Positions 25,286-44,306 of a DNA stretch of 64,000 nucleotides are shown here, piece by piece. The DNA is from Candidatus Omnitrophota bacterium. GTDB lineage: Bacteria > Omnitrophota > Gorgyraeia > Tantalellales > Tantalellaceae. A program made the position numbers and the translations under genes. Location: contig JAQUQS010000001.1 in assembly GCA_028715965.1 (NCBI GenBank), positions 164,188-228,187 of the forward strand. The letters are read 5' to 3'. The notes below the pieces were generated by a model. It had not been told where the DNA came from, searched no databases, and saw nothing but the letters and a program-made list of their open reading frames with translations. Every line of letters begins with the position of its first letter. Position 1 is the stretch's first letter.

Positions 25286-26040
25286 TTTTTTAATACTCTT
25301 TCTACCGCGGAGTCTTTTATCCACGCGGATTTCCCGTCAGAACGCCTTGCCCTGACCCATCCGTCCTTACTGTTGATTATATTCACCTTCATACCTTCGT
25401 TCAGGGTGAAGAATTTGGTGGCCGAATCAAATGGCCCGTATAGCGCCTCTACCGCCGGGACCATGACAATAGCGGACGTTCTCTCGTTCACCGCTTTATG
25501 CCAGGCCAGGAAGACATTAAAAACAAGTATTATGGAGAAACATATCAAAATTGTCCTGTGATATCGTGTAACCATCCTCCCCGTTACACCTATAGCCAAA
25601 AGAACAAGGATCACTATCATGGAAACGGACGCCACAATGGTCATCTGGTCCACGCTTAATGTTCTCTCATACACCCGTAAAGGCGTCCAGTTCCACACTC
25701 CTTTTTCCGGCACTACCTTAGCTTTTATATCGGACCTGGCGAACCTGTAATTTGCTCGTATATCAGCATCTCTTGGATCCAACGCTAACGCCCTCTCATA
25801 GTTAAGGATGGCCTTGCCCAGATTTCCCGATTTGAAATATGCCCCCGCCAGGTTGTAATATATGTTAGGGCTTTTCTTCCCGGAGGACAGTATCTTCTCG
25901 TATCCGGCTATCGCCCCGGACCAATCAGCCTGTTCATACTTATCGTTAGCGGACGAGAAAAGTTCGGCCGTTGTCTCCGCCAGGCCTCTACCGGCGGTCA
26001 ACATCAAAATAGCCAGAGATAGTACGATCATCTTCTTCAT
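25282..26040 (-). CDS. batE: BatE-like protein (TPR repeats, TM segment, C-terminal SH3b-like domain) of the aerotolerance-type Bat operon.
   Basis: It has a signal peptide, TPR motifs (YYNLAGAYFKSGNLGKAILNYERALALDP), an internal TM segment, and a C-terminal GMKVNIINSKDGWVRARRSDGKSAWIKDSAV (SH3b-like). It is the last gene of the Bat cluster. Confidence 0.65.
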   Translation of the reverse strand: MKKMIVLSLAILMLTAGRGLAETTAELFSSANDKYEQADWSGAIAGYEKILSSGKKSPNIYYNLAGAYFKSGNLGKAILNYERALALDPRDADIRANYRFARSDIKAKVVPEKGVWNWTPLRVYERTLSVDQMTIVASVSMIVILVLLAIGVTGRMVTRYHRTILICFSIILVFNVFLAWHKAVNERTSAIVMVPAVEALYGPFDSATKFFTLNEGMKVNIINSKDGWVRARRSDGKSAWIKDSAVERVLKK

Positions 26041-27887: not shown

Positions 27888-27940
27888 ACCTCTTGATCCA
27901 CCGTAAGTATTCTCCTATCCAAGACCCTCTTATATCATCG

Positions 27941-28906: not shown

Positions 28907-28922
28907 TTTACCCTCTATATCT

Positions 28923-29936
28923 TCAATTGACGATGTTTTTTCTTCTGTCTCCCAGGAACACCTCTATCAAAAGCAGGAACCCGGCGATAAATAACGGCAG
29001 CTGGAACCTTTCATAATAGCGTTTTTCCATCCTACTCTTGAATTCCTCTTTTTCAAGCCCGGCAAGTTTTTTCTCGTATATAAGGTCCAGCCCGAACTCC
29101 GCCCCGGTAGCTCTTACATACATACCTCCCGTCTGAAGGGCTATTGACTGAAGCACGTCCTCCCTGAGACGGGTCTTGACCACATTACCTTCCATATCCT
29201 TAAGAAAAGATGTCTTGCCCGTACCCGCGTCCCGGACAGGAACAAGTTCCCCTTCTTCCGAGCCGATACCCACACAATATATGTTGATCCCGGCCACCTT
29301 GGCTTTTTGCACGGCTTTATCGACACCACCCTCAAGGTCCTCTCCGTCGGTTATGATTATCAGTATCTTATTCTCTTTTTTCTCCTTCTCATAACTTTCG
29401 ATGGCTTTATATATCGCCTCCGAGATGGATGTTCCCCCCATCGGTATCGTATCTACACTTATATCATCAAGCGCCAGCAGGAACCCGTCATAGTCAATGG
29501 TCAAAGGGCATTGAAGAAAAGCCGACCCTGAAAAAGCTATAAGCCCCAACCTGTCACCCTTGAGTTTCTTGACCATATCCTTGACAGCCAGTTTGGCACG
29601 CTCCAACCGGTTAGGCCTTACGTCTTCAGCGAGCATACTTTTCGAGGTATCCAGCGCTATTATTATATCTATGCCCTGTTTTTTCACTTCCTTCCATTCG
29701 AATCCCCATTGGGGACGCATAAGCGCCATCGCGATGAAAAATAACGCGGCAAGTTTTATGATATCCTTTCTTTTCCGGCGCGAATTGTCATATGAAGCGG
29801 CTATTTCAGCTAAAAGACCTTTTTCGGCGAAACGTTCCAGCGTGCTCTTCCTGCGGCCGGAAGAAAGAATAAAGAACACCGCTACCGCCGGTAACAGCCA
29901 TAAAAGAACACTCATTTGCGGCGCGCCGAACATCAT
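28923..29936 (-). CDS. batB: BatB-like von Willebrand factor A domain membrane protein.
   Basis: It has N-terminal TM helices and a VWA MIDAS motif (IIALDTSKSM ... ITDGED). Confidence 0.75.
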   Translation of the reverse strand: MMFGAPQMSVLLWLLPAVAVFFILSSGRRKSTLERFAEKGLLAEIAASYDNSRRKRKDIIKLAALFFIAMALMRPQWGFEWKEVKKQGIDIIIALDTSKSMLAEDVRPNRLERAKLAVKDMVKKLKGDRLGLIAFSGSAFLQCPLTIDYDGFLLALDDISVDTIPMGGTSISEAIYKAIESYEKEKKENKILIIITDGEDLEGGVDKAVQKAKVAGINIYCVGIGSEEGELVPVRDAGTGKTSFLKDMEGNVVKTRLREDVLQSIALQTGGMYVRATGAEFGLDLIYEKKLAGLEKEEFKSRMEKRYYERFQLPLFIAGFLLLIEVFLGDRRKNIVN

Positions 29937-29937
29937 G

Positions 29938-30942
29938 TTAAGGTAACCTCCTGAATAAAGTATCGGACAATATTATCTCCGCCAGGAAGAGCGCCAAAGC
30001 CGGGACCAGTAGATACGGGAACAACTCCTTGAAAATGTTGAACCCGGTCTCTTCTATCGGGGTCTTCTCCAGCTTATCTATCTCATCATATATGCGTTCC
30101 AGTGATTCCGTATCGGTCGCCCTGTAATATTTACCGCCGGTAACATCCGCTATTTCCCCGAGAAGCTCTTCATCTATCTCGACCTCCATAGGTCGTAAGA
30201 CCGTATTCCCGAACCTGTCTTCCACAGGATAGGGGGCCATCCCCCTGGTCCCGGCGCCTATCGTGTACACCCTGACACCTAATGCCTTGGCGGCTTCAGC
30301 GGCTACCATCGGGGATATTGTCCCGGCGTTGTTCCGTCCATCGGTAAGCAATATCACGATCTTCTGCTTTGTCTTGGTATCCTTCAACCGGTTAAGCGCG
30401 GCGCTTATAGCCGAACCTATCGCGGTACCGTCCTTCATCATGCCTATCTGTACCCTGTCCAGGTTCTCCTCAAGCCAATTATGGTCGAGTGTAAGAGGAC
30501 AGACCGTGTACGCCAGGCCCGCGAAAGCGACCAGGCCTATCCTGTCGTTCGGCCTTCTCTGCACAAAAGAATCAACTACCTTTTTGACCACTTCAAGCCG
30601 GTCAACCCGGCGCTTGTTGATCTCGAAATCCATAGCGCGCATACTCGTTGAGGTATCCACCGCCAGCACGATATCGATACCTTCCACGTATATATGTGTC
30701 TCTTCCAGTATGGTTTGGGGCCGGGAACCGGCGGCTAGCACAAGTATTATGGCCAGGAGTCTGAGATGCCGGACCTTAGCGCTTAATCTGCTCCTCAGCG
30801 TGGGCTTTATCCCGCCGATCACCGTGTTGTTGGAGAACCTGATAAAGCTCCTTTTCCCGGAACGCATATGGTCAAGCACCAGATACAGGGCTATGACCGG
30901 GGGTATGGATAAAAGGACAAGGGGAGAAGCCAGACGCATCAT
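29938..30942 (-). CDS. batA: BatA-like von Willebrand factor A domain membrane protein.
   Basis: It has N-terminal TM helices, the MIDAS motif VLAVDTSTSM ... LLTDGRNNAG, and a C-terminal TM segment. Confidence 0.75.
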   Translation of the reverse strand: MMRLASPLVLLSIPPVIALYLVLDHMRSGKRSFIRFSNNTVIGGIKPTLRSRLSAKVRHLRLLAIILVLAAGSRPQTILEETHIYVEGIDIVLAVDTSTSMRAMDFEINKRRVDRLEVVKKVVDSFVQRRPNDRIGLVAFAGLAYTVCPLTLDHNWLEENLDRVQIGMMKDGTAIGSAISAALNRLKDTKTKQKIVILLTDGRNNAGTISPMVAAEAAKALGVRVYTIGAGTRGMAPYPVEDRFGNTVLRPMEVEIDEELLGEIADVTGGKYYRATDTESLERIYDEIDKLEKTPIEETGFNIFKELFPYLLVPALALFLAEIILSDTLFRRLP

Positions 30943-31904
30943 GCCGTTCCCCTTTCTTCTTCCTCACCCTTTTTTGTCTGGTCCACAAGGTCCATGGCTG
31001 ACTTGAAACTGTCTATTATATCGATAGGCCTAGGGGCGAATTTCGCGAACTTTACCATATCACAATGCGAAAGGAACTCCTTTAGAAGACGCTTGTGTTC
31101 CGGGAACAGGTCATCCGTATTTTTCAAGAATGAAAGGAACTCTTCCGTTGTCATTTCAGGGGCCTTGTACGAGAAACGCGCCTCCAGGTACCGCCTTATT
31201 ATATCGGATAACTCGGTATAATATTCGTCCACGAATCCCTTCGATGGAAGCTCCTTTGCTTTCAGTTCCTCCAGCCTCTTATACGCTCTCTCATGCGGAG
31301 GCATGATATTGTCCAAACTGGCCTCACGCAATACGACCCGGAAGCGCCTTATTGCTGCGCGTAGCGCCAATGCCGCGAGTACTGATACAACGAGCAATAC
31401 CGATACAAGAAGAAAATAGTTCCTGAACACGATAAGTCCCTTGATATCCCGTATATCCTTGCTGTCCGGCAGTAGTGTGGTCTGGACATCAATATCCAGA
31501 CCGGCGGATGAGGTCTCATTCCACTTGTCAGCACCCTTTGCCCGGTATCTTACTTTTACGGAAGGGATATGGTACTTACCCGCGGCAAAGCTCCTGAGCA
31601 CATAAACATATCCGGGGACTTTGCCCCATAAAGGACCTTCTTTTTCCGGATATGCCCTTACGAGCTCCATACCTTCCGGCATACCAATCTTCTCGGGGAA
31701 TTCCACATCCATCTTTTTCCCTCCGGGAAAGAAGACCTCGAGCCTGACATCGTCCCCGATGAATATATCCTCTTTCGAGAGCCTGACATCAAGATCCGTA
31801 CCGGTCTTCCCCTGGCAAAAAGATATCCCGCAGCATAAAACGACCAACAGGCTCATGACCCCGCGTATAATGGCTTTACTACTCAGGCTTCCTATTTTTA
31901 TCAC
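30939..31904 (-). CDS. Membrane protein of the MoxR/Bat operon (DUF4381-like position between the DUF58 gene and batA).
   Basis: It has a signal peptide, a central TM segment (LLVSVLLVVSVLAALALRA), a conserved operon position, and a 4-nt overlap with batA. Confidence 0.55.
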   Translation of the reverse strand: MIKIGSLSSKAIIRGVMSLLVVLCCGISFCQGKTGTDLDVRLSKEDIFIGDDVRLEVFFPGGKKMDVEFPEKIGMPEGMELVRAYPEKEGPLWGKVPGYVYVLRSFAAGKYHIPSVKVRYRAKGADKWNETSSAGLDIDVQTTLLPDSKDIRDIKGLIVFRNYFLLVSVLLVVSVLAALALRAAIRRFRVVLREASLDNIMPPHERAYKRLEELKAKELPSKGFVDEYYTELSDIIRRYLEARFSYKAPEMTTEEFLSFLKNTDDLFPEHKRLLKEFLSHCDMVKFAKFAPRPIDIIDSFKSAMDLVDQTKKGEEEERGTA

Positions 31905-31919
31905 GCTTACATACCTCTT

Positions 31920-32822
31920 TTATCGTCTGATAAACCGTTTTTCACGTGTCCTGAAAAACCTTATCAAAGGCTCAACATACGACCTGTCCGTGGACAACTC
32001 TATGTGGTCCACGTTCACCGACCTGAAAAGCCGGCGCGCGCGCTCCCTTATCTCACGGTTCTCCCTGCGGAACATATCCCTGACAGCGGGCGAAGACGTG
32101 TCTACGACCGCCCTTAGTCCGGTTTCGGCGTCCCGGAGCTCCAACAAGCCCGCGTTCGTAAGCTCGGCTTCCGACGGGTCTTCTACCGTAACGGCTATTA
32201 CATCATGTTTTTTATTGGTTATCGAAAGTGTTTTCCGGAAATCATCTGAGTAGAAATCAGACACAAGAAAGACTATCGCCCGCCGGTGAGCCACTTTATT
32301 AAGATGGTTCAGGACCTTGTTTATATCGGTATGGGTCCCTGCTGGTCTATTATGCAATGCCTCCCTTATCACACGAAGCACGTGTTTCATTCCCTTACGG
32401 GGCGGCACGAACTTTTCGACCCTGTCCGTGAACGTGAGCATACCTACCTTGTCGTTGTTCTTTATGGCGGAGAATGCTATGACCGAACAAAGTTCCGCGG
32501 CAAGCTCACTTTTCATGCGTCCCCTTGTCCCGAACCGGCAGGACATGGACACATCAAGAAGGATCATTATGGTAAGTTCCCTCTCCTCCACGAATTTCTT
32601 GATATAAGGATGCCCCATGCGCGCCGTGACGTTCCAGTCTATTGAACGTATCTCGTCTCCCGGAGTGTATTCCCTGACCTCGTCGAACTCCATCCCCACG
32701 CCCTTGAACACACTCTGGTACTGACCAGCGAACACATCCGTTACTTTTCTCGAGGTAGTTATCTGTATCCGTCTTATCTTGCGTATGGTCTCTTTAGGTA
32801 TCATAATGAGCTCCCCGCGCAA
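31920..32822 (-). CDS. DUF58-family protein (MoxR-associated, VWA-like fold).
   Basis: The characteristic DUF58 motifs are ...QYQSVFKGVGMEFDEVREYTPGDEIRSIDWNVTAR... and ILLDVSMSCRFGT. The alternative start M7 is at 32804. Confidence 0.8.
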   Translation of the reverse strand: MRGELIMIPKETIRKIRRIQITTSRKVTDVFAGQYQSVFKGVGMEFDEVREYTPGDEIRSIDWNVTARMGHPYIKKFVEERELTIMILLDVSMSCRFGTRGRMKSELAAELCSVIAFSAIKNNDKVGMLTFTDRVEKFVPPRKGMKHVLRVIREALHNRPAGTHTDINKVLNHLNKVAHRRAIVFLVSDFYSDDFRKTLSITNKKHDVIAVTVEDPSEAELTNAGLLELRDAETGLRAVVDTSSPAVRDMFRRENREIRERARRLFRSVNVDHIELSTDRSYVEPLIRFFRTREKRFIRR

Positions 32823-32855
32823 AAATGATCACTTTATGGTCCGATACGCGGACCG

Positions 32856-33848
32856 TTATGGTACTTCTATCTCGTCGAATATCTTTTTTACTATGTCTTC
32901 CGCGGTCTTGTCTTCCGCTTCGGCCTCATAACTCGGTATGACCCTGTGGCGCAGGACATCCGGCCCTATCGACTTAACATCCTGTGGGGTCACATATCCC
33001 CTGCGCTGCACGAAAGCGTAAGCTTTTGCCGCTATAGCCAGGTTTATACTGGCTCTCGGCGAAGCACCGTAATCGATCAGTCCCTCAAGGTCCTTGATCC
33101 CGTATTCGCCCGGGGTACGGGTAGCGAAGACTATATCAACGATGTATCTTTCTATTTTTTCGTCCATATATATCTCATTCACTACCTTTCTGGCCTCAAG
33201 TATCCTTTCCGGCGATACTACGGGCTTTACGTCTATATGCCTGTCCGTGTTGGCCATCCGTTTGAGTATCTTATGCTCCTCCTCTTTGGAGGGGTAGCCG
33301 ATATTTATCTTCAGCATGAACCTGTCTACCTGGGCCTCGGGCAAGGGATATGTACCCTCCTGCTCTATCGGGTTCTGTGTGGCCAGCACCAGGAAAGGTT
33401 CTTCAAGTTTGTACGTGTTCTCACCTATGGTCACCTGCTTTTCCTGCATAGCTTCCAGAAGTGCGCTTTGGACTTTCGCGGGCGCCCTGTTTATCTCATC
33501 GGCAAGTATTATGTTAGAGAATATAGGGCCTTTTTTAGTGGTGAAAGTACCGTCCTTGGGACTATAGACCAATGTACCGATAAGGTCCGCGGGCAAAAGG
33601 TCCGGCGTGAATTGGAGTCTCTGGAACTTTGTGCTTATGGCGGAGGACAGCACCCTCACCGAGAGGGTCTTGGCCAGTCCAGGGACCCCTTCTATCAATA
33701 CATGGCCGTTGGCGAGAAGCCCGACCATTAACCTCTGTATGAGGTAATCCTGTCCGACTATCACTTTACGTATCTCGGCAAGTAGTTCATCAACAAAAAG
33801 ACTTTCATTCTGTACTTTTTCGTTTATTGCTGTTATGCCCTGGGACAT
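32856..33848 (-). CDS. moxR: MoxR-family AAA+ ATPase (first gene of the aerotolerance-type operon).
   Basis: Walker A is HVLIEGVPGLAKT and Walker B is LADEINRAPAKVQSALLEAM, as in MoxR. A strong SD (AAGGAGGT-5 nt-ATG) supports the start at 33848 (MSQGITAI); the ORF track's longer N-terminus runs into AT-rich promoter DNA. Confidence 0.85.
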   Translation of the reverse strand: MSQGITAINEKVQNESLFVDELLAEIRKVIVGQDYLIQRLMVGLLANGHVLIEGVPGLAKTLSVRVLSSAISTKFQRLQFTPDLLPADLIGTLVYSPKDGTFTTKKGPIFSNIILADEINRAPAKVQSALLEAMQEKQVTIGENTYKLEEPFLVLATQNPIEQEGTYPLPEAQVDRFMLKINIGYPSKEEEHKILKRMANTDRHIDVKPVVSPERILEARKVVNEIYMDEKIERYIVDIVFATRTPGEYGIKDLEGLIDYGASPRASINLAIAAKAYAFVQRRGYVTPQDVKSIGPDVLRHRVIPSYEAEAEDKTAEDIVKKIFDEIEVP

Positions 33849-33870
33849 CTCAACCTCCTTGCTTATATTT

Positions 33871-33905
33871 TTACAGTATAATATTGATACTATACAACAA
33901 ATAAA
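33871..33905 (-). promoter_or_regulatory. Putative promoter of the moxR-bat operon (TATACT/TATTAT -10 region with an upstream TTGTTG/TTGTAT -35 candidate).
   Basis: AT-rich sequence ttgttgtatagtatcaatattatactgtaa (minus strand) lies immediately upstream of the moxR SD. The exact boxes are ambiguous. Confidence 0.35.
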
Positions 33906-33954
33906 AACCTTTTTCAAGAAGACGTGTTAACGACTATTTTTATTTACGTTAATA

Positions 33955-35961
33955 TTATTGAGAGAAGAAGTTACGGACTTCAGAGGCATCCCGTACCAGC
34001 CGGCAACCGGGTATGCCGTTAAGGAACCTCGACCCATAAGGCCGGGTAAGTATCCTCGGATCCAACACGACCACTACACCACGATCACTCTCCGACCTTA
34101 TCAACCGTCCAAAGCCTTGCTTGAACATCATTACAGCCCTGGGGACCTGATAAGCGTAAAAAGGGTCCTGCCCTTCCTGCCTGATACGATCCATCCGGGC
34201 AAGAGCGACAGGCTCATTAGGAACGGGGAACGGCAAACGGGTCAGGACGACACATTCCAACGCTCTTCCGGGGACATCCACCCCTTGCCAGAAAGTCGAA
34301 GTTCCCATCAAGATCGAGTCCCTTACCTGCTTGAACACGTCGAGCAATACATATCGCGGCAGTTCGCCTTGTTTAAGTATCTTTACGTCCTCCCTCTCCT
34401 CCCTTATGGCGCCTGAAATCTGGTTCAGCATTTCATAACTCGTAAAGAGTACGAACATCCTCCCCTTCAATATGTCATAGATCTCCAGGACATGGTCCTT
34501 GACCTGTTCCCGAAATTTTCCGGCGGCGTCATTCGGGTCACTGATATTCCGCGGAACATATAAAAGCACCTGGTTCTCGTGGTCGAACGGGGAGTTCAAT
34601 ACAAGTTCCGCCGCGTCGCTTATCCCCAATCTTGAGCGGATAAACCCGAAATCGGCCTTTCCGTGACCATCCGGGCTCGTAAGTGTTGCTGATGTAAGGA
34701 CCACGGGCGCTACCCTGCTAAAAAAAGCCCTTTCCATCTCTTCGCCCACATCGATCGGAGCACTTCTGAAAAAAACCTCTATAACGCCTTTTTTTTCGCG
34801 TGTTTCGGCCCAATACACATGTCTTATGTCCTCCTGGCCCGTTATGAACACCATATCCGTGGCCAGTCCGGCGCACTCCGCGCTGAGCGCGCTCGCCCTT
34901 TCAGGCATTTCTTCCAGAAAAGATATCCTGGCGCTATCCCTCCCATAAAATATCATGTCACAGGCCCGCCTTAATCCGTCGGCAAGGTCGACAAGACCGT
35001 CACGTAACTCACTAACGCTGAACATCTCAGGAGAGAACGAATATGGCCCGCTTCCCCTGCCGGTGAACATGCCGGCCGCGTGCGCGAAGAAACGTTCCGC
35101 GTATTTTTCCGTCATGGCCAGGCCCTCTTCAAGCTCCGTCACGTTCTCGAAAGAGTCTTTTAATATCCCCTTGCCTTCCTTGATGAAGTTCTTTATCTCC
35201 TTGAATAACCGTTCTGCGGTAACGCTTCCGGTACTGTGTGAAAAATGTGATGTGGCTACATCTTCCAGCATATGGGCCTCATCAAAGACCAGGGCATCAT
35301 ATTCGGGAAGTATCCTGCCGGACGCGGCATCATCGGAAAAGACCAGGGCGTGATTAGCCACCAGTATATGGGAATTCTCCTGCTCTATCCTGGCTTTTCG
35401 ATAAGAACAGGAATCAGCGAACTGGCAGGCCCTCTGATGGCAGAGGCCGGACACCCGGCAAAATTCCGCCCAGACAGATGTGGTCGGCTGAAAGTCCAGG
35501 TCAGTTACCAGGCCGGAACGGGTATGTCTGGCCCACTCGATTATTCTTTCGGCTTCCTCCCTCTTTTTTCTGGACCTTGAGAACCTTGAACCGTCATATC
35601 CCTGGACTCTTCTGGCGCAGACATAGTTCTCTGATCCCATACATAAAGCGTACCGCAGGCGATCATTTATCGTATCCCTGAGAAAAGGCAGGTCTTTGAC
35701 ATATAACTGTGCCTGCAAGGCCTTCGTATATGTAGACACCACTACTTTTTTATTCTCACGTACGGCCCACTCCGTAAAAGGCACAAGATATGCCAGGCTC
35801 TTCCCGACCCCGGTACCAGCTTCCACTATCAGGTTATTCCCGAGCGATATCGCCTCTTCTATGGCGGACGCCATTTCCAGCTGTTGAGGCCTTAACTGGT
35901 AATTCTTCAAGGATCCGGACAGGGACCCTTTTTCGGAAAATACGGATTCACTATAATTCAT
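33955..35961 (-). CDS. dinG: DinG/Rad3-family ATP-dependent DNA helicase (DEAD_2 plus Helicase_C_2).
   Basis: Walker A is EAGTGVGKSLAYLVP, the DEAH box is VFDEAHMLED, an Fe-S-like Cys cluster is CMGSENYVCARR...C...C, and C-terminal helicase motifs are present (LMGTSTFWQGVD...). Confidence 0.8.
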   Translation of the reverse strand: MNYSESVFSEKGSLSGSLKNYQLRPQQLEMASAIEEAISLGNNLIVEAGTGVGKSLAYLVPFTEWAVRENKKVVVSTYTKALQAQLYVKDLPFLRDTINDRLRYALCMGSENYVCARRVQGYDGSRFSRSRKKREEAERIIEWARHTRSGLVTDLDFQPTTSVWAEFCRVSGLCHQRACQFADSCSYRKARIEQENSHILVANHALVFSDDAASGRILPEYDALVFDEAHMLEDVATSHFSHSTGSVTAERLFKEIKNFIKEGKGILKDSFENVTELEEGLAMTEKYAERFFAHAAGMFTGRGSGPYSFSPEMFSVSELRDGLVDLADGLRRACDMIFYGRDSARISFLEEMPERASALSAECAGLATDMVFITGQEDIRHVYWAETREKKGVIEVFFRSAPIDVGEEMERAFFSRVAPVVLTSATLTSPDGHGKADFGFIRSRLGISDAAELVLNSPFDHENQVLLYVPRNISDPNDAAGKFREQVKDHVLEIYDILKGRMFVLFTSYEMLNQISGAIREEREDVKILKQGELPRYVLLDVFKQVRDSILMGTSTFWQGVDVPGRALECVVLTRLPFPVPNEPVALARMDRIRQEGQDPFYAYQVPRAVMMFKQGFGRLIRSESDRGVVVVLDPRILTRPYGSRFLNGIPGCRLVRDASEVRNFFSQ

Positions 35962-36056
35962 TGGTTTCTTTCAGCAAGACATACGGAACATGTTCCAAAA
36001 TATTAATGGGCCGATGATAACACTTTCCGGGATACGGTTCAGGGGCGTTTGACGGC

Positions 36057-36545
36057 TCAATATACGATCGTCCCCGGGGTGTTCTTCCATTCCACCAGTA
36101 TAGCCATGCATTCTTCCCGCATGAAACCCGGTTCGATACGGACGGGTGAAAGACCTTTTTCCTTCATGTGCATCGACGATATACACAATTCATTGAAACC
36201 CAGCTTCTTCACGTCCTCTATGTCTGTCCCATAAACAAGGCGTTCTATCCTGGCCCAGTGTATGGCCGCGAAACACATTGGACATGGTTCGGTCGTGGAA
36301 TATATGACACATCCGGACAGGTCGTGGCTACCTATTTCCCCGGCGGCCAGGGATATCGCGTTGATCTCGGCGTGCCGTGTAGGGTCTTTTTGCTCAAGTA
36401 CGGAGTTATGCGCGGAAGCTATGATCTTCCCGTCCTTTACCAGTACCGCGCCGAAAGGCCCGCCACTGCCACCTCTTATCCCATTAAGCGCTTCCTGTAT
36501 CGCCACATTCATGGCTTTGTGGTCATCCACTTCGTTCCTTCTCAT
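36057..36545 (-). CDS. CMP/dCMP-type zinc deaminase, guanine deaminase (GuaD)-like.
   Basis: The HAEINAI...TTEPCPMCFAAIHWARIERLVYG zinc-binding H(A)E...PCxxC motifs are present, with an overall close resemblance to Bacillus GuaD (about 160 aa). Confidence 0.7.
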   Translation of the reverse strand: MRRNEVDDHKAMNVAIQEALNGIRGGSGGPFGAVLVKDGKIIASAHNSVLEQKDPTRHAEINAISLAAGEIGSHDLSGCVIYSTTEPCPMCFAAIHWARIERLVYGTDIEDVKKLGFNELCISSMHMKEKGLSPVRIEPGFMREECMAILVEWKNTPGTIVY

Positions 36546-36919
36546 TTCTCCAGTTTGCTCCTTATATCCTTAAGCACTTTATCTATCCTGTCTATTCTCC
36601 ACTCAAGGGACGACAATATCCAGAACTGGAAATGGTTGAGCCTCATATAAGATTCCAGGAAGTATACGAGCTTTAGCGACAAGAGCAATATGCCAAGCTC
36701 TATCATGAAAAAACGTATCTTGCCGCCGTACAATATCGATAGGGCGAATATCACGAGTACAAGGGTTATGAATATTACGTTTATCAGGCGGGCCCGGTCC
36801 GAAGGAACGCCCCCGATCTTTCCTATTATCTTCCTTACGTTCTCTTTCTCCTGCTCAAAACTGCGTATAGCGTCTTCCAGCTCCGTTTCCTGGTCCGTCT
36901 TGCTGTAATGTTCTTTCAT
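36542..36919 (-). CDS. Small two-TM membrane protein of unknown function (last gene of the exbBD-TPR-VWA module).
   Basis: The sequence is MKEHYSKTDQETELEDAIRSFEQEKENV... with two hydrophobic helices. An SD (GGAAGGA) precedes the ATG at 36919; the ORF track's longer start (36997) lacks one. Confidence 0.5.
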   Translation of the reverse strand: MKEHYSKTDQETELEDAIRSFEQEKENVRKIIGKIGGVPSDRARLINVIFITLVLVIFALSILYGGKIRFFMIELGILLLSLKLVYFLESYMRLNHFQFWILSSLEWRIDRIDKVLKDIRSKLEK

Positions 36920-36945
36920 GATGTCCTTCCATTCCTTATTTTGTT

Positions 36946-37115
36946 TTTTTCTCGGTCGTGGACACGTCGTGTTTCTTATCGTTCTCGGTGGCCACAAGGA
37001 CAGTGGCCGCGGCCCCCGCCCCGGCCAGGAACCAGAGCGGAGCGCATCCCGCGCTTGTCATGACATATGAAATAAGGACCAAACCTCCCACGAATATCCT
37101 TGCTCTCGTCACCAT
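36946..37115 (-). CDS. Possible unannotated small hydrophobic or lipoprotein-like ORF (56 aa), below the ORF-track length cutoff.
   Basis: My reading of the minus strand gives MVTRARIFVGGLVLISYVMTSAGCAPLWFLAGAGAAATVLVATENDKKHDVSTTEKKTK*. It starts 11 nt after the VWA-gene stop, preceded by AAAGGGGA. A lipobox-like SAGC is present. Confidence 0.3.
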
Positions 37116-37126
37116 TATCCCCTTTC

Positions 37127-38806
37127 TCAGTCCTTCCCCGTATCGTCGAGGTCATAGGAAGTATTTATCCCGAATCTTTCGCAAAGTGCGCTTATCTCGT
37201 TCTTGAGCCCTACCGGATCCCCCAGCCCCATGCTATCCCGGCTTATGAGGTAATATATCCTGCGAAAAGCCCATTGCCTGGCGATATCCTTATCCCCCGG
37301 GGAAGCGTCTTTCAACGATTTGGCGAAAATGAACTCTTTCGTCGCGCCTTTTATCTCTCCCAGTAGCTGCATGGAAAATATGTCCTCTTCCCCGTAGCGG
37401 CCATATATGGCGAACGGCTTTCCCATGTAAAAATCAGTAAGATATTTCGGGAAGATCTCATCTTGACGCAGGCCGTTGGACCTATAACGTACGTTTATCA
37501 GCAGCGGGTCCTTGATCTCCCTGTAGAACCCCACAAAAGCCGTGTCAATGTCGGCGTTCGACGACGCGAATCCGCTCCAGGCCCTGTTCTGGTAAGATAT
37601 GAACTCCAGAAGATATCGATTGACCCGGCTGCCGCCGCCGAAACAGAAAATCGGTCTTTTCATATCGTTAGACCGCGTTATCTCCTGTATGATATTACGC
37701 GAATCGACAAGACCTGTCGTGGGTCGTCCGTCGCTTATAAGTATAACATATGATGGAACGGACCGCATTGGTTCCTGTGTAATATCCAGAAGGGCCCTTT
37801 CCACATTGGTCTGCCCGGTGGATTCCAGGTCCCTTATGAACGACCTGGCGCTTTCGACCGTCCTTTCCGTACACCTTAACGGGGTCTCACTGAACTTTAT
37901 CACGTTGCCCTTGAACGATAATATGTTGAACGTATCTCCCGGATTGAATATCTGGATAGCGTTCCATAGCCCTTTTTTTATCTCCGCTAGTTTCTGCTCG
38001 GTTATGCTCTTCGAAGAATCAACAAGGAAAAGCACTTCTTTTGGCATGACCTGCAGGTCCCCTGTCCTTTTTACGTTTATAAGAACGCGGAAAAAATTCT
38101 CTCCCGTACCCGGGTCATGATACGTCTTGAGGTCAACGTCAAGATACGGGCTTATGTCCCCGTAATCCCCTATACGCGACGGCCCCTTGCTGGCGGACAC
38201 TTCTTTGGATACAGGATCGGGAGAGGTCTTTAGCAGTGGCTCCGGCAATGGTGTGGACATGCCTTTCCCCGGGGGAGAAATGCTTGAGATCTCCGATGAT
38301 CTGAGCTCACCTGGGACCCCGTCTTCCCCTGCCGGGGCTTTTACCATGCCTCCTGAGACAAATTCACCGGCAATATGTCTTCTTTCCGATGTTATGCGTC
38401 TACTGGACTTCTTGGCCTCGGCCTTTATCACGTCCGGCAATTCCATCTTTCTGCTCAAACTTCCCGACACATCCTCCCTGTCGGCCGCCTTCATTTCATG
38501 CTTTTTCTTTTCTATGGCCTCACCCTCCAACTTCGCCACTGGCATGACCTTCTCGAACAGTACTTCATCGATACCTGTTGTCTCATGCGACATCTTAATG
38601 GCAGGCTGGGTATCATCTTCTTCCCGCGCTATGGAAATATCCCCGGCGCGGCCCTCCAATCCGCGGATACGGAAAAGTTTCTGCGACGCGATGATCGCGT
38701 GTTTAACCCCGGCAAGTCTTATATACGGGCTTACCGCCACGAATATGACGTGCAGCAGTATGGACGCTATCAAGGCAAGATAAAGGGTCCTAGTTCTTCT
38801 TGTCAT
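37127..38806 (-). CDS. Membrane-anchored VWA-domain protein with a TonB/TolA-like N-terminal anchor (SxxxH motif), a charged and Pro-containing linker, a VWA domain and a ~200-aa C-terminal region.
   Basis: The N-terminus is MTRRTRTLYLALIASILLHVIFVAVSPY (S-ILL-H, as in TonB SHLS / TolA). The linker is ...SSISPPGKGMSTPLPEPLLKTSPDPVSKE. The VWA region is VLFLVDSSKSITE...LISDGRPTTG. It overlaps the upstream TPR gene by 17 nt. Confidence 0.75.
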   Translation of the reverse strand: MTRRTRTLYLALIASILLHVIFVAVSPYIRLAGVKHAIIASQKLFRIRGLEGRAGDISIAREEDDTQPAIKMSHETTGIDEVLFEKVMPVAKLEGEAIEKKKHEMKAADREDVSGSLSRKMELPDVIKAEAKKSSRRITSERRHIAGEFVSGGMVKAPAGEDGVPGELRSSEISSISPPGKGMSTPLPEPLLKTSPDPVSKEVSASKGPSRIGDYGDISPYLDVDLKTYHDPGTGENFFRVLINVKRTGDLQVMPKEVLFLVDSSKSITEQKLAEIKKGLWNAIQIFNPGDTFNILSFKGNVIKFSETPLRCTERTVESARSFIRDLESTGQTNVERALLDITQEPMRSVPSYVILISDGRPTTGLVDSRNIIQEITRSNDMKRPIFCFGGGSRVNRYLLEFISYQNRAWSGFASSNADIDTAFVGFYREIKDPLLINVRYRSNGLRQDEIFPKYLTDFYMGKPFAIYGRYGEEDIFSMQLLGEIKGATKEFIFAKSLKDASPGDKDIARQWAFRRIYYLISRDSMGLGDPVGLKNEISALCERFGINTSYDLDDTGKD

Positions 38807-41144
38807 CTATCTCTTCTATTCTCTTCTTTGCGTTGGAGGAAAAAGAGCTGTCCGGATATCTACCTATCAGCTCCTTCAGCACTTTCACCGCCTCTACCTC
38901 GTCACCCGCTTCATAAAAAGCTTCCCCTGCCCGGAACAAGGCTTCCGAGCATAGTCCCTTATCTTCGTACAATATGGCCACCATCATGTAGTTTTTCGCG
39001 GCTTCCCTGTTATCCTTCTTAGCGGCGTATATCCTTCCCATTTCGAACCGTACGAGCGCCCCGGTCTTGTTGTCCCTGTCCGATGTAAGGGCTTTCTCGA
39101 GCTCTACAATGGCCTTGTCCATTTCCCCCTTATTGTACAGGGCCTTACCCATGCCGAGATAAGCTCGCCCGGCATATGGCGTACCTTCACCTTTTTCGGA
39201 TATATCCTTATATAGCTTGAACGCCTTGTCATTCTCCCCGGAACACAGGAATACCTGGGCCCTTAGGTAAGCTATACCCGTATCGGAGGCCCGTCCCGGA
39301 TATTCTTCTACGAGCCTGTCCAGGGCCGTCATGGCCTTTTCCCGATCACATTCTTCGGCGTAAAATTCCGCCACCCACTGGTATATGCCTTCAGGCATCC
39401 TGTACGCGGTCCGGGTGGAGATCAGCCCATAATACACGTCTGCCGCCCCGGCATGGTCACCTTCCTGGAAAAGGGAATACGCCTTTGCTTCGGCGGCCTT
39501 GTCCGCCAGGTCGGATGTATCCTTTATCGTATCGAAATTCTCTACCGACAGGGCCCATTCCTTCTTTGCTTGATACGCTTTCCCCATAGCGTACATGACC
39601 GCGTCGCCGACCCGGGTATCGGGATACTCCGCCAGGAGCCCCTTGTAACACTCTATGCTCTTGTCATATTCCTGGGCACCTAGATACGCTTTGCCCATCT
39701 GGTAAAGCACGTTCTCCCGGAGAGGACTGTCCTTGTACCTGTTCAAAAAATCCTCACAATCCCGCGCGGCGTCATTAAAAAGCTCGAGGGAGATCTTCTC
39801 TTCCACCGATCTCAATATAGCCACAGGCGCTCTTTCTTCCGATGGGTCGTTCTTGGCGAAAAGATCCAGGTATTTCGTGGCTTTTTCATGGTCATTGAGC
39901 TCGGAAGATAACCACCCGGCCTCATAAAGCGCGTCGCCATAATACCTGCTGGATGGATATCCCGATAACACTTTCTCGAAACTCGAGAGAGCTTCTTTCT
40001 TGTCCCCTTTCCGGGTAAGGATCTTACCCTTGAGATACAATGCCTCACTCAAGTCCTCATCCCCTGTCCCAGGAAAACTCCCGACCTTCAACAGGGCTTC
40101 CGGGTCTTTATCCATGCGATAAAGGACCCATGCCAGATCTAGCGTAGATCTTTTGCCGGACACGGTCTCGGGATATTCCTTTTCGTTCTTCGAGAAAAAA
40201 CGCGCCGCCTCCACGTACCTGTCATCGTTGAAACAGCTCACGCCAGCCGCGTAGATCATTTTTGAGCGGATGTCCCTGTCTGAAACCCTGTCAAGGGCGC
40301 CATCAACGAACGCCGCTGTCTCAGCCCCATTACCTTCCCGGCTGATACAGGAAACCAAGCCCAAAGCCGCCCTGTCAAGGACCGTGGGCGGCATTTCCTC
40401 CCCCTCCATAAGTTCGTTATATATCTGTCCGGCCAGGGAAGTCTTGTCCATCGCGTAATACGCCCCGGCAGCGTAGAGTTTGGCCTGGTATTTAGACTCG
40501 CTTTCGGGAAAAAGTCCCGCTGCCGATAGATAAGCCTCCGCCTCTTTCCCGTATTCTTTCCTTCCGTCGTATATCCCTCCCAGGGACATGTATGCATATG
40601 GAGCATATTCACTGTCTCCGTACCTTGACACAAAACCTTCTAGGGCCGTCATGGCCTTTTCGGTCTTTCCCTGTTTATCATATCCGGACGCGAGATAGAA
40701 CCTGGCGGACTCTTCGACATCATCCTCCTCTCCCGAAGATATGAGGCGTGAGAATACCCTTTCGGAATCCGCGTAATCCCCCTTCATGTAGTATGACTGC
40801 CCCTTACGCAGGACCATTTCCCTTGAGAACGCGCTCCCAGGGCTGGCGTTCAGGATCTCGTCACAATATGACAGGGTCTCGTCATATTGCCCGGACAGAA
40901 AATAGCTCTCTACGATCCTGTACTCGGCCAGATCCTTGTGGGCCGACCCCGGATATTCCGACAAGAACCCCTTATACCCTTCTATGGCCATATCATACAT
41001 GCCCCGAGAGAAAAGACCGTTAGCGAAATCCAGTTCCTCCACCTCGTTCCCTGCCCTGTCGCCCGCGGCATAACCCGTGTATTGCGCCATGACCGGGAAC
41101 AAAAAGATCGCGGCCACCAGATACAGTCGTCCTATTCTTCTCAT
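38790..41144 (-). CDS. Large periplasmic TPR-repeat protein (784 aa, more than 15 TPR units) with a signal peptide.
   Basis: The signal peptide is MRRIGRLYLVAAIFLFPVMAQ. Repeated TPR signatures follow (AEYRIVESYFLSGQYDETL..., AYLRAQVFLCSGENDKAFKLY..., ALFRAGEAFYEAGDEVEAVKVLKELIGRYP). Its start overlaps the exbD stop (ATGA). Confidence 0.8.
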   Translation of the reverse strand: MRRIGRLYLVAAIFLFPVMAQYTGYAAGDRAGNEVEELDFANGLFSRGMYDMAIEGYKGFLSEYPGSAHKDLAEYRIVESYFLSGQYDETLSYCDEILNASPGSAFSREMVLRKGQSYYMKGDYADSERVFSRLISSGEEDDVEESARFYLASGYDKQGKTEKAMTALEGFVSRYGDSEYAPYAYMSLGGIYDGRKEYGKEAEAYLSAAGLFPESESKYQAKLYAAGAYYAMDKTSLAGQIYNELMEGEEMPPTVLDRAALGLVSCISREGNGAETAAFVDGALDRVSDRDIRSKMIYAAGVSCFNDDRYVEAARFFSKNEKEYPETVSGKRSTLDLAWVLYRMDKDPEALLKVGSFPGTGDEDLSEALYLKGKILTRKGDKKEALSSFEKVLSGYPSSRYYGDALYEAGWLSSELNDHEKATKYLDLFAKNDPSEERAPVAILRSVEEKISLELFNDAARDCEDFLNRYKDSPLRENVLYQMGKAYLGAQEYDKSIECYKGLLAEYPDTRVGDAVMYAMGKAYQAKKEWALSVENFDTIKDTSDLADKAAEAKAYSLFQEGDHAGAADVYYGLISTRTAYRMPEGIYQWVAEFYAEECDREKAMTALDRLVEEYPGRASDTGIAYLRAQVFLCSGENDKAFKLYKDISEKGEGTPYAGRAYLGMGKALYNKGEMDKAIVELEKALTSDRDNKTGALVRFEMGRIYAAKKDNREAAKNYMMVAILYEDKGLCSEALFRAGEAFYEAGDEVEAVKVLKELIGRYPDSSFSSNAKKRIEEIDDKKN

Positions 41145-41569
41145 TTCTTGTCCTTTTCACGTATAGTAGCGAAAGAAACGTTCCATATCCCGCTGGAAGC
41201 GCAAATGTCCAATACTTTTATGACGTCCTTATGAAGAGTGTCCCTGTCCGCCCTGATTATCACGGGCTGGTTCTTATAAAGCTCCGCCACCCGTACCAGC
41301 ATGTCCCGGAGCGCGGCGTGGTCCAGCTCCCTCTGGTTAACGACTATCGTGCCATCCTGACGTATGTTTATTATTATTTCACCTGCCGTACGTTTCATAT
41401 CCGTGGACTTTTCGGCGACCGGTACGGTGATGTTTATCTCACTCTCAAGCTGGTAAAATACCGACGCGGACATGAAAAAGATGAGAAGAAGGAATACGAT
41501 ATCTATGAGCGGAGCCATTTGTATCTGGGGGCCCGTCTGCTTTGCTTCCTTTACGGACGAAAGATCCAT
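41141..41569 (-). CDS. exbD: ExbD/TolR-family biopolymer transport protein.
   Basis: It is 142 aa with the N-terminal motif APLIDIVFLLLIFFM (the conserved TM Asp-containing segment of ExbD/TolR). Confidence 0.85.
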   Translation of the reverse strand: MDLSSVKEAKQTGPQIQMAPLIDIVFLLLIFFMSASVFYQLESEINITVPVAEKSTDMKRTAGEIIINIRQDGTIVVNQRELDHAALRDMLVRVAELYKNQPVIIRADRDTLHKDVIKVLDICASSGIWNVSFATIREKDKK

Positions 41570-41591
41570 CTATGTCTCCTTTTCTGCCGTA

Positions 41592-42338
41592 TCAGCGTTT
41601 AATGTTCTTCTTTACCAGAAGGTGGTACAGGTCTCCTGACACGTCTTCAAGCCGGGCTATGACCCCTTGGACCTTTCCCCTGAAAAAAGAATAAAAGATC
41701 ATCGACGGTATCGCTATCATAAGTCCCGCGGCTGTGGTAACCATAGCTTTTGATATCCCGCTGGCAAGTAGTATGGGTTTAACTGACCCGGTCTGGAACG
41801 CGATAACATTGAAAGCCTGTATCATACCTATGACCGTACCCAGGAGGCCCACCATGGGAGCTATAGACGCTATATCTGCCAGGTAACTTATCTTCTGCCA
41901 CAGGTCTTCCACGGCCCGCCGGCCCGCGTCCTGTATGGCCTCTTTTATTATAGGCTCTTCCTTTCCTACACGGGTAAGTCCCGCCAGAAGCACATCCGAT
42001 ATAAGGTTGTTATTATTCTCGCATATCATCTTTGCCTCCTGGAACCCGCTCCTTTCGATGACCGATACGGTCTTCTCGAAAAATGTGTCCGGGATAAGTT
42101 TTTCTTTCTTGATCATTACCGTGTAATATATGATGAGCCCGACCGCGGCTATCGATAAAAATCCCAGCACCACCATCACCCATCCCCCGGACTGGATTAT
42201 CTGCCACAAGGTCATCCCGTTCTCCGCGTCGGACGCGTCGGGGATATATTGCGAGACGGCTCCCTGGGCTGTTGCTTCCATTGTCATTATTACGTTCATT
42301 AAGCAGAAAAATACGGCGGTTCTCTTACGGATATTCAT
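41592..42338 (-). CDS. exbB: MotA/TolQ/ExbB-family proton channel with an N-terminal signal/periplasmic extension.
   Basis: The C-terminal TM2/TM3 signature is ...IASIAPMVGLLGTVIGMIQAF...SGISKAMVTTAAGLMIAIPS. A strong SD (AGGAGGT-6 nt) supports the start at 42338; the ORF track extends to 42392. Confidence 0.85.
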   Translation of the reverse strand: MNIRKRTAVFFCLMNVIMTMEATAQGAVSQYIPDASDAENGMTLWQIIQSGGWVMVVLGFLSIAAVGLIIYYTVMIKKEKLIPDTFFEKTVSVIERSGFQEAKMICENNNNLISDVLLAGLTRVGKEEPIIKEAIQDAGRRAVEDLWQKISYLADIASIAPMVGLLGTVIGMIQAFNVIAFQTGSVKPILLASGISKAMVTTAAGLMIAIPSMIFYSFFRGKVQGVIARLEDVSGDLYHLLVKKNIKR

Positions 42339-42430
42339 CCCCTGACCTCCTGTTTGATCTTTGGCGGGATACATAACAAGGCAAAAAGACATATCATGGT
42401 CATGCAGTCCTTCCTGGTATATTTCATAGA

Positions 42431-42460
42431 ATTATACATTTTTGTAAGGCTATGTGTAAA
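42431..42460 (-). promoter_or_regulatory. Sigma70-type promoter for the exbB-exbD-TPR-VWA module (TTTACA-18-TGTATAAT).
   Basis: On the minus strand it reads TTTACACATAGCCTTACAAAAATGTATAAT. A perfect TATAAT with an extended TG lies about 95 nt upstream of the exbB ATG. Confidence 0.55.
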
Positions 42461-42479
42461 GGAATAACTGGCTCATGTA

Positions 42480-43202
42480 TCATACGAAGATCACAGTGCC
42501 GGCGTCAAAAAGCGGCGCGCTATGGACCTCAAGGCTGATGACCCCGGCCCGGGAGAACATTTCCTTGATGCGGAGGCCGTCAGGGTGGGTCAGGAGGTCC
42601 CCCGCGATAAAGACCCTGCCGTCCGGGAGCGTTCCACTGGCGCCTCCGATCAGACCATACTTCTCTCCAGGCAGTTCTACCCCGCCCGCGGATACCAACC
42701 CGGCCGTAATGCCCCTTTTTTGGGCCTCAAGGTATATTCCTTTATCCGAAGTCACTATATGCCGGTCGTCAAGGACAAGAGTGGAACATCTCGCGTACCC
42801 CTGAGGTACATGTACGAAGTCCAACCCCGCTTCCAGGCCGAGTTCTTTTATTACCGGGTCCGTGTGTTCCAGGTTGTGGAACATGAACCTCCCTATCTTT
42901 ACCGCGTTATATGAACATGTGCGGGGATACTTCCCGTCAGGCACCTTGCTCCCAGGGACCGTCCTTATCCCGTTACGCCTGAAAATATCCGTATATGTGT
43001 GGTCTATACCCGGGGCGTGTACAACAAGGTCTTCCCTTAACTTGAAAAAGAATATATCCGGGTGCCCGGATATTGAGGCATAGACCGTTTCCCTGCCAAA
43101 TGCTTTTGACGAAGAGAACTCTACGGGGTCGACATCCGGCAGCCCGGCGGACATCCCGGAAATATAAACTCCCGGCATACGTTCGTCATATAGCGCTTTC
43201 AT
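42480..43202 (-). CDS. Conserved hypothetical protein (240 aa) encoded directly downstream of a radical SAM gene; family not recognized.
   Basis: An uninterrupted ORF with coding-like composition lies adjacent to the rSAM stop with a 0-nt gap. No motif was confidently assigned. Confidence 0.5.
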   Translation of the reverse strand: MKALYDERMPGVYISGMSAGLPDVDPVEFSSSKAFGRETVYASISGHPDIFFFKLREDLVVHAPGIDHTYTDIFRRNGIRTVPGSKVPDGKYPRTCSYNAVKIGRFMFHNLEHTDPVIKELGLEAGLDFVHVPQGYARCSTLVLDDRHIVTSDKGIYLEAQKRGITAGLVSAGGVELPGEKYGLIGGASGTLPDGRVFIAGDLLTHPDGLRIKEMFSRAGVISLEVHSAPLFDAGTVIFV

Positions 43203-44306
43203 TCAACGCAGGCCTTTCATAAGTCCTTCCGGGAGCACAGCCGATGCCAGGTGTTCCCGGTCCAGACAACGTGTGCCGTTACGGCCCACAATGTTCATGG
43301 ACCCTCTCGCTAAAGAGGGATCTTTTCTGAGCGTGACCCCTTTATCCGAGACAAGGCTTTTCAGCACAGCCGCGTTCTGGCCCATATATCCGTATAGATA
43401 AGGCTCATCCGACGGGTTGAAGCATAATTCGTGTATGTCGGGCATCTCCTTGAACGTGTATCTCAAGGCATATCCATATAGTAGACTTTCAGCCTTGGCC
43501 CTGAACGACTCATGGAACGGTCCAGCGACAAGCTCCGCCCCGGAAAGCAGGTCCTCTGAAGGGTGCAGGCCGCATCTTATCACTTTCATCCCGCTCGCCT
43601 CGAAAAAGAGAATAAGGTGCGCCGCCCGCATGACCGCCTCATCTTCGGGCAATGGGCAGTAAGAACCTTCCCTGAACAGCCTTTCCATCTCTGTACCTTT
43701 TATCACTACGGCCGGATATATACGGACTTCATCCGCCCCGGCCTTACGGGCATATACAGCGGAATGGTATTCTTCTTCCCTTCCGCTCTCGGGAAGTCCC
43801 AGCATCAATTGATGGGTAAGGCCAAGTCCCGCTTTTTTCACGATCTTTGAGGCGACTTCCGAATCATGCGCGGTATGGCCTCTCTGGCATGCCTTGAGGA
43901 CCCTGTCCGACATTGACTGCACTCCAAGCTCCACGCGTATTACTCCCATGTTCCCGAGAAACGAGGTCTTTCCCTCATCTATATTGTCCGGGCGGGTGGA
44001 AACCCTTATGCCTTTTATCCTTCCGCTGTCCAAAAAACCCTTAACACTGACCAGGAGGTGTTCCTGCAGGTCTACCGGCAGAGCGGTGAACGTCCCACCG
44101 AAAAAACCTACCTCTATCCAGGCATCGCGTTCTCTTATCGTGGACAGGTATTTTTCCACTACGGCAGGTATATCAGGGACCTTTGTCTCTTCCTGACCCG
44201 ATATCTTGTCCTGGTCACAAAAAATACACTTACACGGGCATCCCTTATGCGGGATAAAGAACGGGATCGTGTATCGTTTTTTCCGTCTATCGCTCGACAT
44301 ACTCAA
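43203..44306 (-). CDS. Radical SAM protein (ELP3/COG1243-like radical SAM core without an acetyltransferase domain).
   Basis: The motif FIPHKGCPCKCIFCDQ (CxxxCxxC in the ELP3-like context) and a downstream GGTFTALP segment are present. It overlaps maf by 20 nt. Confidence 0.7.
   Translation of the reverse strand: MSMSSDRRKKRYTIPFFIPHKGCPCKCIFCDQDKISGQEETKVPDIPAVVEKYLSTIRERDAWIEVGFFGGTFTALPVDLQEHLLVSVKGFLDSGRIKGIRVSTRPDNIDEGKTSFLGNMGVIRVELGVQSMSDRVLKACQRGHTAHDSEVASKIVKKAGLGLTHQLMLGLPESGREEEYHSAVYARKAGADEVRIYPAVVIKGTEMERLFREGSYCPLPEDEAVMRAAHLILFFEASGMKVIRCGLHPSEDLLSGAELVAGPFHESFRAKAESLLYGYALRYTFKEMPDIHELCFNPSDEPYLYGYMGQNAAVLKSLVSDKGVTLRKDPSLARGSMNIVGRNGTRCLDREHLASAVLPEGLMKGLR

Follow-up and report, generated by a model that had tools for sequence, protein, structure and literature searches.

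Introduction

For decades, Ton and Tol were the only systems in which an ExbB/ExbD-type motor was known to reach across the periplasm. TonB and TolA bind their motors through the SHLS motif (PMC12204202). In 2025, Williams-Jones et al. (Mol Biol Evol; PMC12204202) proposed, by computation, a class of membrane-tethered von Willebrand factor A (vWA) 'force transducers' encoded beside tolQ/tolR and tetratricopeptide-repeat (TPR) genes in the PVC group, with Tichowtungia aerotolerans as the prototype. Members of this class are tethered to the inner membrane by an SHLS helix, which a disordered linker containing a motor box connects to a C-terminal vWA domain; in AlphaFold 3 (AF3) models, their conserved His occupies the TonB/TolA site of the motor. 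The phyla listed for the class do not include Omnitrophota, and the 'Omnitrophica' entry in that paper is a canonical tol-pal locus in Hinthialibacteria. We found no literature on ExbB, TolQ or TonB together with von Willebrand domains in Omnitrophota/Omnitrophica, and no other paper on the class. Here we analyze a 64,000-nucleotide stretch of DNA (the window) from a Candidatus Omnitrophota bacterium (assembly GCA_028715965.1, contig JAQUQS010000001.1), in which genes for an ExbB/TolQ-like subunit, an ExbD/TolR-like subunit, a TPR protein and a VWA protein follow one another. We consider it probable that these four genes form the core of a Ton/Tol-like force-transduction module.

A sequence-only reading of the window had taken this combination for an undescribed system. 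Because the window architecture fits the vWA force-transducer class published in 2025 (PMC12204202), the module can no longer be called undescribed. It is a distinct variant of that class, not the same family in detail.

Results

Four genes form a conserved unit across Omnitrophota

The six open reading frames (ORFs) that the sequence-only reading had placed on the minus strand at 36542-42460 of the 64-kb window are all present there. The first four encode an ExbB/TolQ-like proton-channel subunit (41592..42338; 248 aa from the ATG at 42338, with the open frame reaching 42392), an ExbD/TolR-like subunit (41141..41569; 142 aa), an all-TPR protein (38790..41144; 784 aa) and the VWA protein, the candidate force transducer (37127..38806; 559 aa). 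The ExbB gene probably starts at ATG 42338, which is preceded by GGAGG. The couplings described between the genes were confirmed: the ExbD and TPR genes share 4 nt (ATGA, 41141-41144), the TPR and VWA genes share 17 nt (38790-38806), and 11 nt separate the VWA stop from the start of a 59-aa ORF.

When one genome per species was scanned, 136 genomes were found to encode a relative of the VWA protein, and the best 80 were nearly all from Omnitrophota. Synteny was counted in loci with at least 3.9 kb of sequence upstream of the VWA gene (n = 60). ExbB and a single ExbD were found upstream of the VWA gene in 59 of the 60, and the TPR gene lay between ExbD and VWA in the loci that cover that stretch (tblastn); at L061 and L075, tblastn matched just the first ~180 residues of the TPR protein. 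L091 was one further locus with the motor pair and TPR gene upstream of VWA. Overall, the motor pair and the TPR gene stood directly upstream of VWA in 60 of the 62 related loci with enough upstream sequence. The module has no ExbD gene other than this one, and a second ExbD was seen at no locus among the 59 where the motor pair lies upstream.

The linkage is kept down to 31-33% identity (L004 and L088) while the flanking genes change: heme and glycosyltransferase genes are found in L002, a TonB-dependent receptor-ExbB-ExbD-TonB set in L004, and sugar-nucleotide genes in L091. Conserved linkage with exbBD had been set beforehand as the gene-neighbourhood check on the proposal, and it was borne out with differing flanks. 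The first four genes are thus a conserved unit, and these loci show that all four have been inherited together across Omnitrophota.

The VWA protein has a TonB/TolA-type anchor and a long disordered linker

The VWA protein belongs to a family of 550-600-aa proteins found mostly in Omnitrophota. The window protein is 100% identical to a protein from a metagenome-assembled genome at NCBI. Its AlphaFold 2 (AF2) model places a transmembrane (TM) helix at residues 3-28 and a globular head, predicted with confidence, at 213-552; residues 45-212 between them are disordered. The N-terminal helix (38723..38800, minus strand; predicted local distance difference test score, pLDDT, 89-97) has the sequence ...ALIAS15ILLH19VIFVAVS..., in which S15 and H19 are spaced as S-x3-H. 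H19 is kept in at least 90% of the sequences in the family alignment (A1), and Ser is the majority residue at position 15. Of 117 full-length homologues, 113 carried the pattern [S/A]xxxH in their hydrophobic N-terminus; among the other four, three are truncated gene calls. This pattern corresponds to the first half of SHLS and agrees with the TolA TM helices in the supplement of PMC12204202, such as STLIH and STSLH. The sequence-only reading had described a TonB/TolA-type N-terminal anchor, and the conservation of the helix supports this assignment and, with it, a putative motor-docking signature.

The periplasmic linker (residues 29-212; 38171..38722, minus strand) comprises ~183 residues, and the family median is 182 aa. 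Just past the helix, at the position of the TonB/TolA 'motor box', lies an FRxKxV segment in which F45 is at least 90% conserved in A1, making it a candidate motor box. The linker is mainly charged and predicted to be disordered, with pLDDT <50 at 45-96, 111-122 and 137-212. It had been described as a Pro-rich spacer; this holds for its distal part (residues 165-212, 9 Pro in 48) but not for the linker as a whole, which has 13 Pro in 183 residues (7%). Many family members also have a conserved (D/E)PEEGMPGFTP motif before the head (A1 columns ~270-285, VWA residues ~175-190), of which the window protein has a degenerate form, PPGKGMSTP. The motif may act as a peptide to which another protein, such as the TPR protein, docks.

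The head is of the ITIH type

The globular head (residues 213-552; 37151..38170, minus strand) was modeled as an integrin/ITIH-type hybrid beta-sandwich into which a VWA domain is inserted, with three helices after it. Pfam VWA_3/VWA matched residues 257-419, and the residues of MIDAS, the metal-ion-dependent adhesion site, D263-x-S265-x-S267 (38006-38020), T333 and D359, were invariant in 40 diverse homologues. The family profile aligned with ITIH4 (E 2e-42) and ITIH1 (E 4e-41) over the VWA domain and all of the downstream region. In a Foldseek search against the PDB, the top match of the head was ITIH1 (6fpy; E 4e-25, 359 columns), and further matches included integrin beta3, pilus tip adhesins and TRAP. 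The head model runs through two strands, the VWA domain, four strands and three helices, an order of elements that is the same as in ITIH1 (domain map from PMC7170535). The C-terminal region of ~200 aa, which the sequence-only reading had left as unknown, is therefore recognisable as an ITIH-type hybrid domain plus a helical bundle. VIT-VWA proteins were the nearest sequence outgroup of the family. The VWA domain, hybrid domain and helices of ITIH and bacterial VIT-VWA proteins are all found in the window head, whereas their large VIT beta-sandwich (PF08487) is absent and the TM helix and disordered linker stand in its place.

A different origin for the VWA protein is offered by the MoxR/Bat aerotolerance system 3 kb downstream, of which it might be a BatA/BatB-type component. 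That operon, MoxR-DUF58-x-BatA-BatB-TPR-BatD-TPR/SH3, is complete (25282-33917) and also lies downstream in the closest relatives. However, the pairwise E values of the VWA protein to BatA and BatB of the window were 0.05 and 0.004, respectively, and these matches were confined to the generic VWA core. The protein also lacks the BatA N-terminal domain (PF07584), and its nearest outgroups are the VIT-VWA proteins described above. In addition, a deaminase gene and a DinG-like helicase gene stand between the two clusters, and distant loci with the four-gene module do not have MoxR/Bat genes downstream of it. We regard this origin as most improbable; the data contradict a Bat-paralogue identity, which we reject, in support of the sequence-only reading.

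The module has its own ExbB/ExbD-type motor pair

The ExbB-like protein matched Pfam MotA_ExbB (E 5e-31); a signal-peptide-like N-terminus is followed by three TM segments, and the motifs GLLGTV and TTxxGL are present. The ExbD-like protein matched Pfam ExbD (E 1e-27) and has the TM aspartate D23 (PLIDIVF). By homology, an ExbB/ExbD-type pair with this essential TM aspartate would be a 5:2 proton-driven stator. Among NCBIfam models, the ExbB-like protein scored highest with tolQ (89.9 bits versus 61.8 bits with exbB), both scores being far under the equivalog cut-offs, and the ExbD-like protein scored 63.5 bits with tolR versus 49.5 bits with ExbD_2. The cut-offs are 221 bits for tolQ and 127.3 bits for tolR, and the window proteins score below both.

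The ExbB-like protein was 38-64% identical to the module ExbB of other loci and 31% identical to the TonB-linked ExbB of L004. Likewise, the ExbD-like protein was 50-53% identical to module ExbD elsewhere and 26% identical to the TonB-linked paralogue. L004 has both pairs: its module ExbB/ExbD were 48%/53% identical to those of the window, and its TonB-linked paralogues 31%/26%. Because the L004 module pair is closer to the window pair than the TonB-linked pair is, the module has its own motor paralogue. Judged by these identities, the module ExbB and ExbD of different loci are orthologues, separate from the TonB-linked paralogues of the same genome.

The TonB-linked set of L004 belongs to a full TonB-dependent receptor-ExbB-ExbD-TonB-ABC uptake cluster directly downstream of the module (L004 9974-13557). 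The ExbB/ExbD-type motor and the TonB-like organisation of anchor and linker would be shared by an energiser of import, in which the VWA head would take the place of TonB-C and bind an acidic 'box' at its MIDAS to open a transporter in the outer membrane, and in L004 a TonB-dependent receptor lies ~300 bp downstream of the module. This receptor, however, has its own ExbB-ExbD-TonB set, no outer-membrane receptor gene adjoins the module in the window, L001, L002, L088 or L091, and TolQ/TolR models give the motor subunits higher scores than ExbB/ExbD models do. We give a role in import very little credence.

The TPR protein is CpoB-like in its repeats

The TPR protein is secreted, with a predicted signal peptide followed by ~20 helical hairpins of CpoB/YbgF-like and BamD-like repeats, and it matched 28 TPR-type Pfam families. 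The tol_pal_ybgF model scored 198 bits across five stretches and the BamD subfamily 145 bits (six stretches). The former score (TIGR02795) exceeds its cut-off of 90.1, but it is a sum over five repeated stretches in a 784-aa solenoid. The protein is CpoB-like in its repeats and not a CpoB orthologue. A word-indexed homologue search returned only about six orthologues of the TPR protein.

The AF2 model (mean pLDDT 88.7) is a continuous solenoid of 42 helices, and the fold search matched it to generic long TPR scaffolds (Ctr9, Ski3 and IFT-A). The flagellar motor of Campylobacter jejuni also provided a match, to its periplasmic scaffold (9hmf, chains K and L; rank 21), and chain K gave the lowest root-mean-square deviation (14.7) among the long alignments with the TPR model. 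This match is suggestive but not specific.

Comparison with described envelope machines

The module and the PVC vWA transducers share the S-x3-H TM helix, the disordered linker, the VWA-fold C-terminal domain and synteny with tolQ/tolR and TPR genes. They differ in gene content and order. The PVC loci have a heterologous tolR/exbD pair and two transducers, whereas the Omnitrophota module has one tolR/exbD gene and one transducer, and its order is Q-R-TPR-vWA, with the TPR gene between motor and transducer, unlike the published PVC layout. The heads differ as well: the Tichowtungia transducers read DANKL/DADKR where the Omnitrophota family has the invariant DxSxS, and the Omnitrophota head is of the ITIH type. 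When the A1 profile was run against the two Tichowtungia sequences (transcribed from the supplement), the scores were 19.9 and 13.5 bits and covered the first VWA strands only. The TM helices of the two groups align with the same S-x3-H, and BLASTP gave E 0.012. Any relationship between the sequences would be very distant at best. The TPH-vWA family, also described in PMC12204202, is found in TolQ-only loci without exbD/tolR and has a helix with a proton-binding Asp. In the window, by contrast, there is an ExbD with D23, and the VWA helix has a His and no Asp.

TonB-ExbB-ExbD systems resemble the module in the ExbB/ExbD-type motor, the single N-terminal S-x3-H helix and the long non-globular periplasmic spacer. 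They differ in that the module has neither TonB_C nor a linked TonB-dependent receptor, and its spacer is charged and disordered, not Pro-rich. TonB_C (PF03544) gave no match at E 0.01 or below, and no TonB_C, TolA, TolB or Pal domain was found among window ORFs of 120 aa or more; the sequence-only reading was right, within these ORFs, that a partner with a TonB_C or TolA-III domain is absent. Tol-Pal is matched by the module in its best motor scores (TolQ/TolR), its CpoB/YbgF-like TPR units and its TolA-like anchor sequence. In contrast to Tol-Pal, the module has no TolA domain III, TolB and Pal are not in the window, and the TPR protein is 784 aa long versus ~260 aa for CpoB.

The Agl-Glt machinery of Myxococcus with the VWA adhesin CglB also brings together a TolQ/TolR-type motor, TPR proteins and a VWA domain in one envelope-spanning machine. 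CglB, however, is an outer-membrane lipoprotein, whereas the module VWA protein is anchored in the inner membrane by a TonB-like helix, and Glt relies on transducers of the TonB-C type and on numerous other components that the module lacks. Motor-driven adhesion or surface motility is another candidate function, in which the MIDAS head or a pulled partner would act as CglB does with the Agl motor in gliding, or would attach these very small cells to hosts or prey. A gliding-type role has been suggested for the vWA class (PMC12204202). MIDAS/VWA heads are classic adhesion modules, with the fold matches to integrin beta3, pilus tip adhesins and TRAP noted above, and the module is preceded by a 5242-aa ORF in L002 (1-4132) and by PKD-repeat and 1075-aa TPR proteins in L004. 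Against such a function, the head has an inner-membrane tether, and genes for a secretin, an outer-membrane channel or Glt-like proteins are not conserved beside the module. The association with giant proteins is not conserved either, the flanks being housekeeping genes in the window, L001 and L091. We consider adhesion or motility unlikely.

A defence-system reading (Zorya or another MotAB-like system) was rejected, as the six proteins gave no PADLOC matches.

Gene neighborhood and transcription

The two genes that follow VWA on the minus strand encode a small hydrophobic protein (36936..37115; 59 aa, with SAGC, lipobox-like) and a two-TM protein (36542..36919; 125 aa), the latter most likely starting at ATG 36919, 16 nt past the stop of the 59-aa ORF. 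Neither protein had a match in Pfam, NCBIfam or PADLOC. The 59-aa gene was directly downstream of VWA in seven closely related loci (39-62% identity; tblastn). In distant loci it was not detected in the sequence covered downstream of VWA (up to 7-10 kb). The two-TM protein was present in 12 loci of the closest subclade at 41-74% identity (54-74% in ten, with 41% and a partial match in the other two), and more distant loci showed no such gene downstream of VWA. Within this subclade, the two-TM protein is conserved more (54-74%) than the VWA (41-46%) or TPR (32-39%) proteins, and deaminase, DinG and MoxR/Bat genes are also retained downstream. The six genes had been read as a single unit. We reject this, because the last two follow VWA only in the closest subclade; they are lineage-specific neighbours of the four-gene core, and their membership in the module is uncertain.

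The sequence-only reading had also given the unit its own consensus promoter. A promoter-like site, TTTACA-18 nt-TATAAT (42431..42460, minus strand), does lie upstream of the ExbB-like gene; it matches the consensus at 11 of 12 positions and is the top-scoring site in 35900-42700. The site is, however, a consensus match only: the 10 promoter-like sites in the region are no excess over shuffled sequence (7.3 ± 3.0), and the TG that abuts the -10 hexamer does not form a canonical extended -10 (TGnTATAAT).

At the other end, a deaminase gene (36057-36545, minus strand) shares an ATGA with the stop of the two-TM gene, and the two genes have no terminator-like site between them. Because of this overlap and the lack of a terminator-like site, the transcript probably continues past the 3' boundary drawn earlier, and the transcription unit probably runs on past the two-TM gene into housekeeping genes. 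The deaminase is TadA/cytidine-deaminase-like. Most close relatives also have its gene downstream of the module, suggesting that the module and a housekeeping gene are transcribed together. The Bat operon further downstream (minus strand) encodes MoxR AAA_3, DUF58, a 321-aa protein that matches no family, a pair of BatA/BatB-type VWA proteins along with a TPR protein, BatD and a protein with TPR plus SH3.

Immediately upstream, the module is flanked by a DUF6873 gene and a radical SAM gene (42480-44306, minus strand). The same pair is upstream in L001, and DUF6873 is upstream in most other close relatives (tblastn). L001 has a PilZ-domain gene (3992-4333) between the DUF6873 gene and ExbB that is absent from the window; it could be an input for cyclic di-GMP (c-di-GMP) or a coincidence. 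Elsewhere in the window, an ORF of 1871 aa (1049-6664, minus strand) has as its sole Pfam match a weak starch-synthase-type glycosyltransferase domain at residues 489-762. Nearly all genes of the window lie on the minus strand, the GC skew is below zero along its whole length and the cumulative skew declines steadily to -4.9, a pattern consistent with a single replichore and strong gene co-orientation. LptF/LptG are encoded in the window, indicating a lipopolysaccharide (LPS) outer membrane.

Discussion

The earlier interpretation of this locus is partly supported by our analysis, and its mechanistic reading is well supported. In the mechanism that we propose, the His-bearing helix of the VWA protein would dock peripherally on the ExbB pentamer, in the manner of TonB and TolA, and the FRxKxV segment after the helix would contact ExbD as a 'motor box'. 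The linker would let the head reach across the periplasm, where a partner's acidic residue would be captured by the MIDAS site and the TPR solenoid would serve as a co-receptor or scaffold. Proton flow through the motor would then be converted into a pull on the bound partner via the hybrid domain.

Several observations weigh against the proposal of a force-transducing module. The contacts between helix and motor and between TPR protein and head are ones that we infer. The third and fourth SHLS positions are not retained in the helix, where the residue at H+7 is mostly S or A and not L, and the AF2 monomer has no beta-strand at the candidate motor box. The conserved unit encodes no outer-membrane partner. 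Finally, the L090 clade has the TPR-VWA pair without an adjoining motor, and L086, the most distant homologue, has the VWA gene alone.

These last two loci could mean that the TPR and VWA proteins form an inner-membrane-anchored periplasmic complex that makes no use of a motor, in which case ExbB/ExbD would be mere operon neighbours and the helix a plain anchor. The TPR gene stays beside VWA in L090 even where the motor is not adjacent, and the 17-nt overlap of the two genes is the tightest coupling in the unit. However, linkage to the motor pair is kept in 60 of 62 loci across 32-48% identity as the flanks change, a dedicated ExbB/ExbD paralogue is present, and a polar His recurs in the TM helix exactly four residues past S/A in 113 of 117 homologues. 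A motor-free complex is, in our judgment, very unlikely.

If the module does transduce force, its physiological role is, by a weak preference, a Tol-like one in envelope or outer-membrane maintenance. We favour this role because the motor subunits score highest against TolQ/TolR and the TPR protein has CpoB-like units, and because the module is found among housekeeping genes, is widespread in the phylum and occurs with an LPS outer membrane. The TolQ/TolR scores are far under the equivalog cut-offs and no TolB or Pal is encoded nearby, so that this assignment is weakly founded.

A more elaborate form of the force-transduction mechanism would be a force-gated counterpart of integrin activation. 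Because the linker enters the head via the hybrid domain that holds the inserted VWA domain, pulling would swing the hybrid domain. The MIDAS might thereby toggle between low and high affinity, giving catch-and-release on an envelope partner held by the TPR protein. Such a cycle could replace that of TolA-TolB-Pal in outer-membrane tethering or constriction in Omnitrophota. We think it quite unlikely that the module works in this way.

The head of the force-transduction module would be a third type beside those of Ton and Tol. A metal-dependent adhesion domain implies a different grip, in which a partner would be held by coordination of an acidic residue and not by beta-strand addition. The Omnitrophota family offers a clean test case for this, as it has one motor pair, one TPR protein, one transducer, an invariant MIDAS and a match to a solved structure, and the module is conserved in at least 136 species-level genomes. 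S15, H19, F45, D263, S265 and S267 are open to mutation, and the TPR protein and the head present a defined binding pair. The module may explain how the outer membrane is maintained or used in a phylum of very small, partly host-dependent cells.

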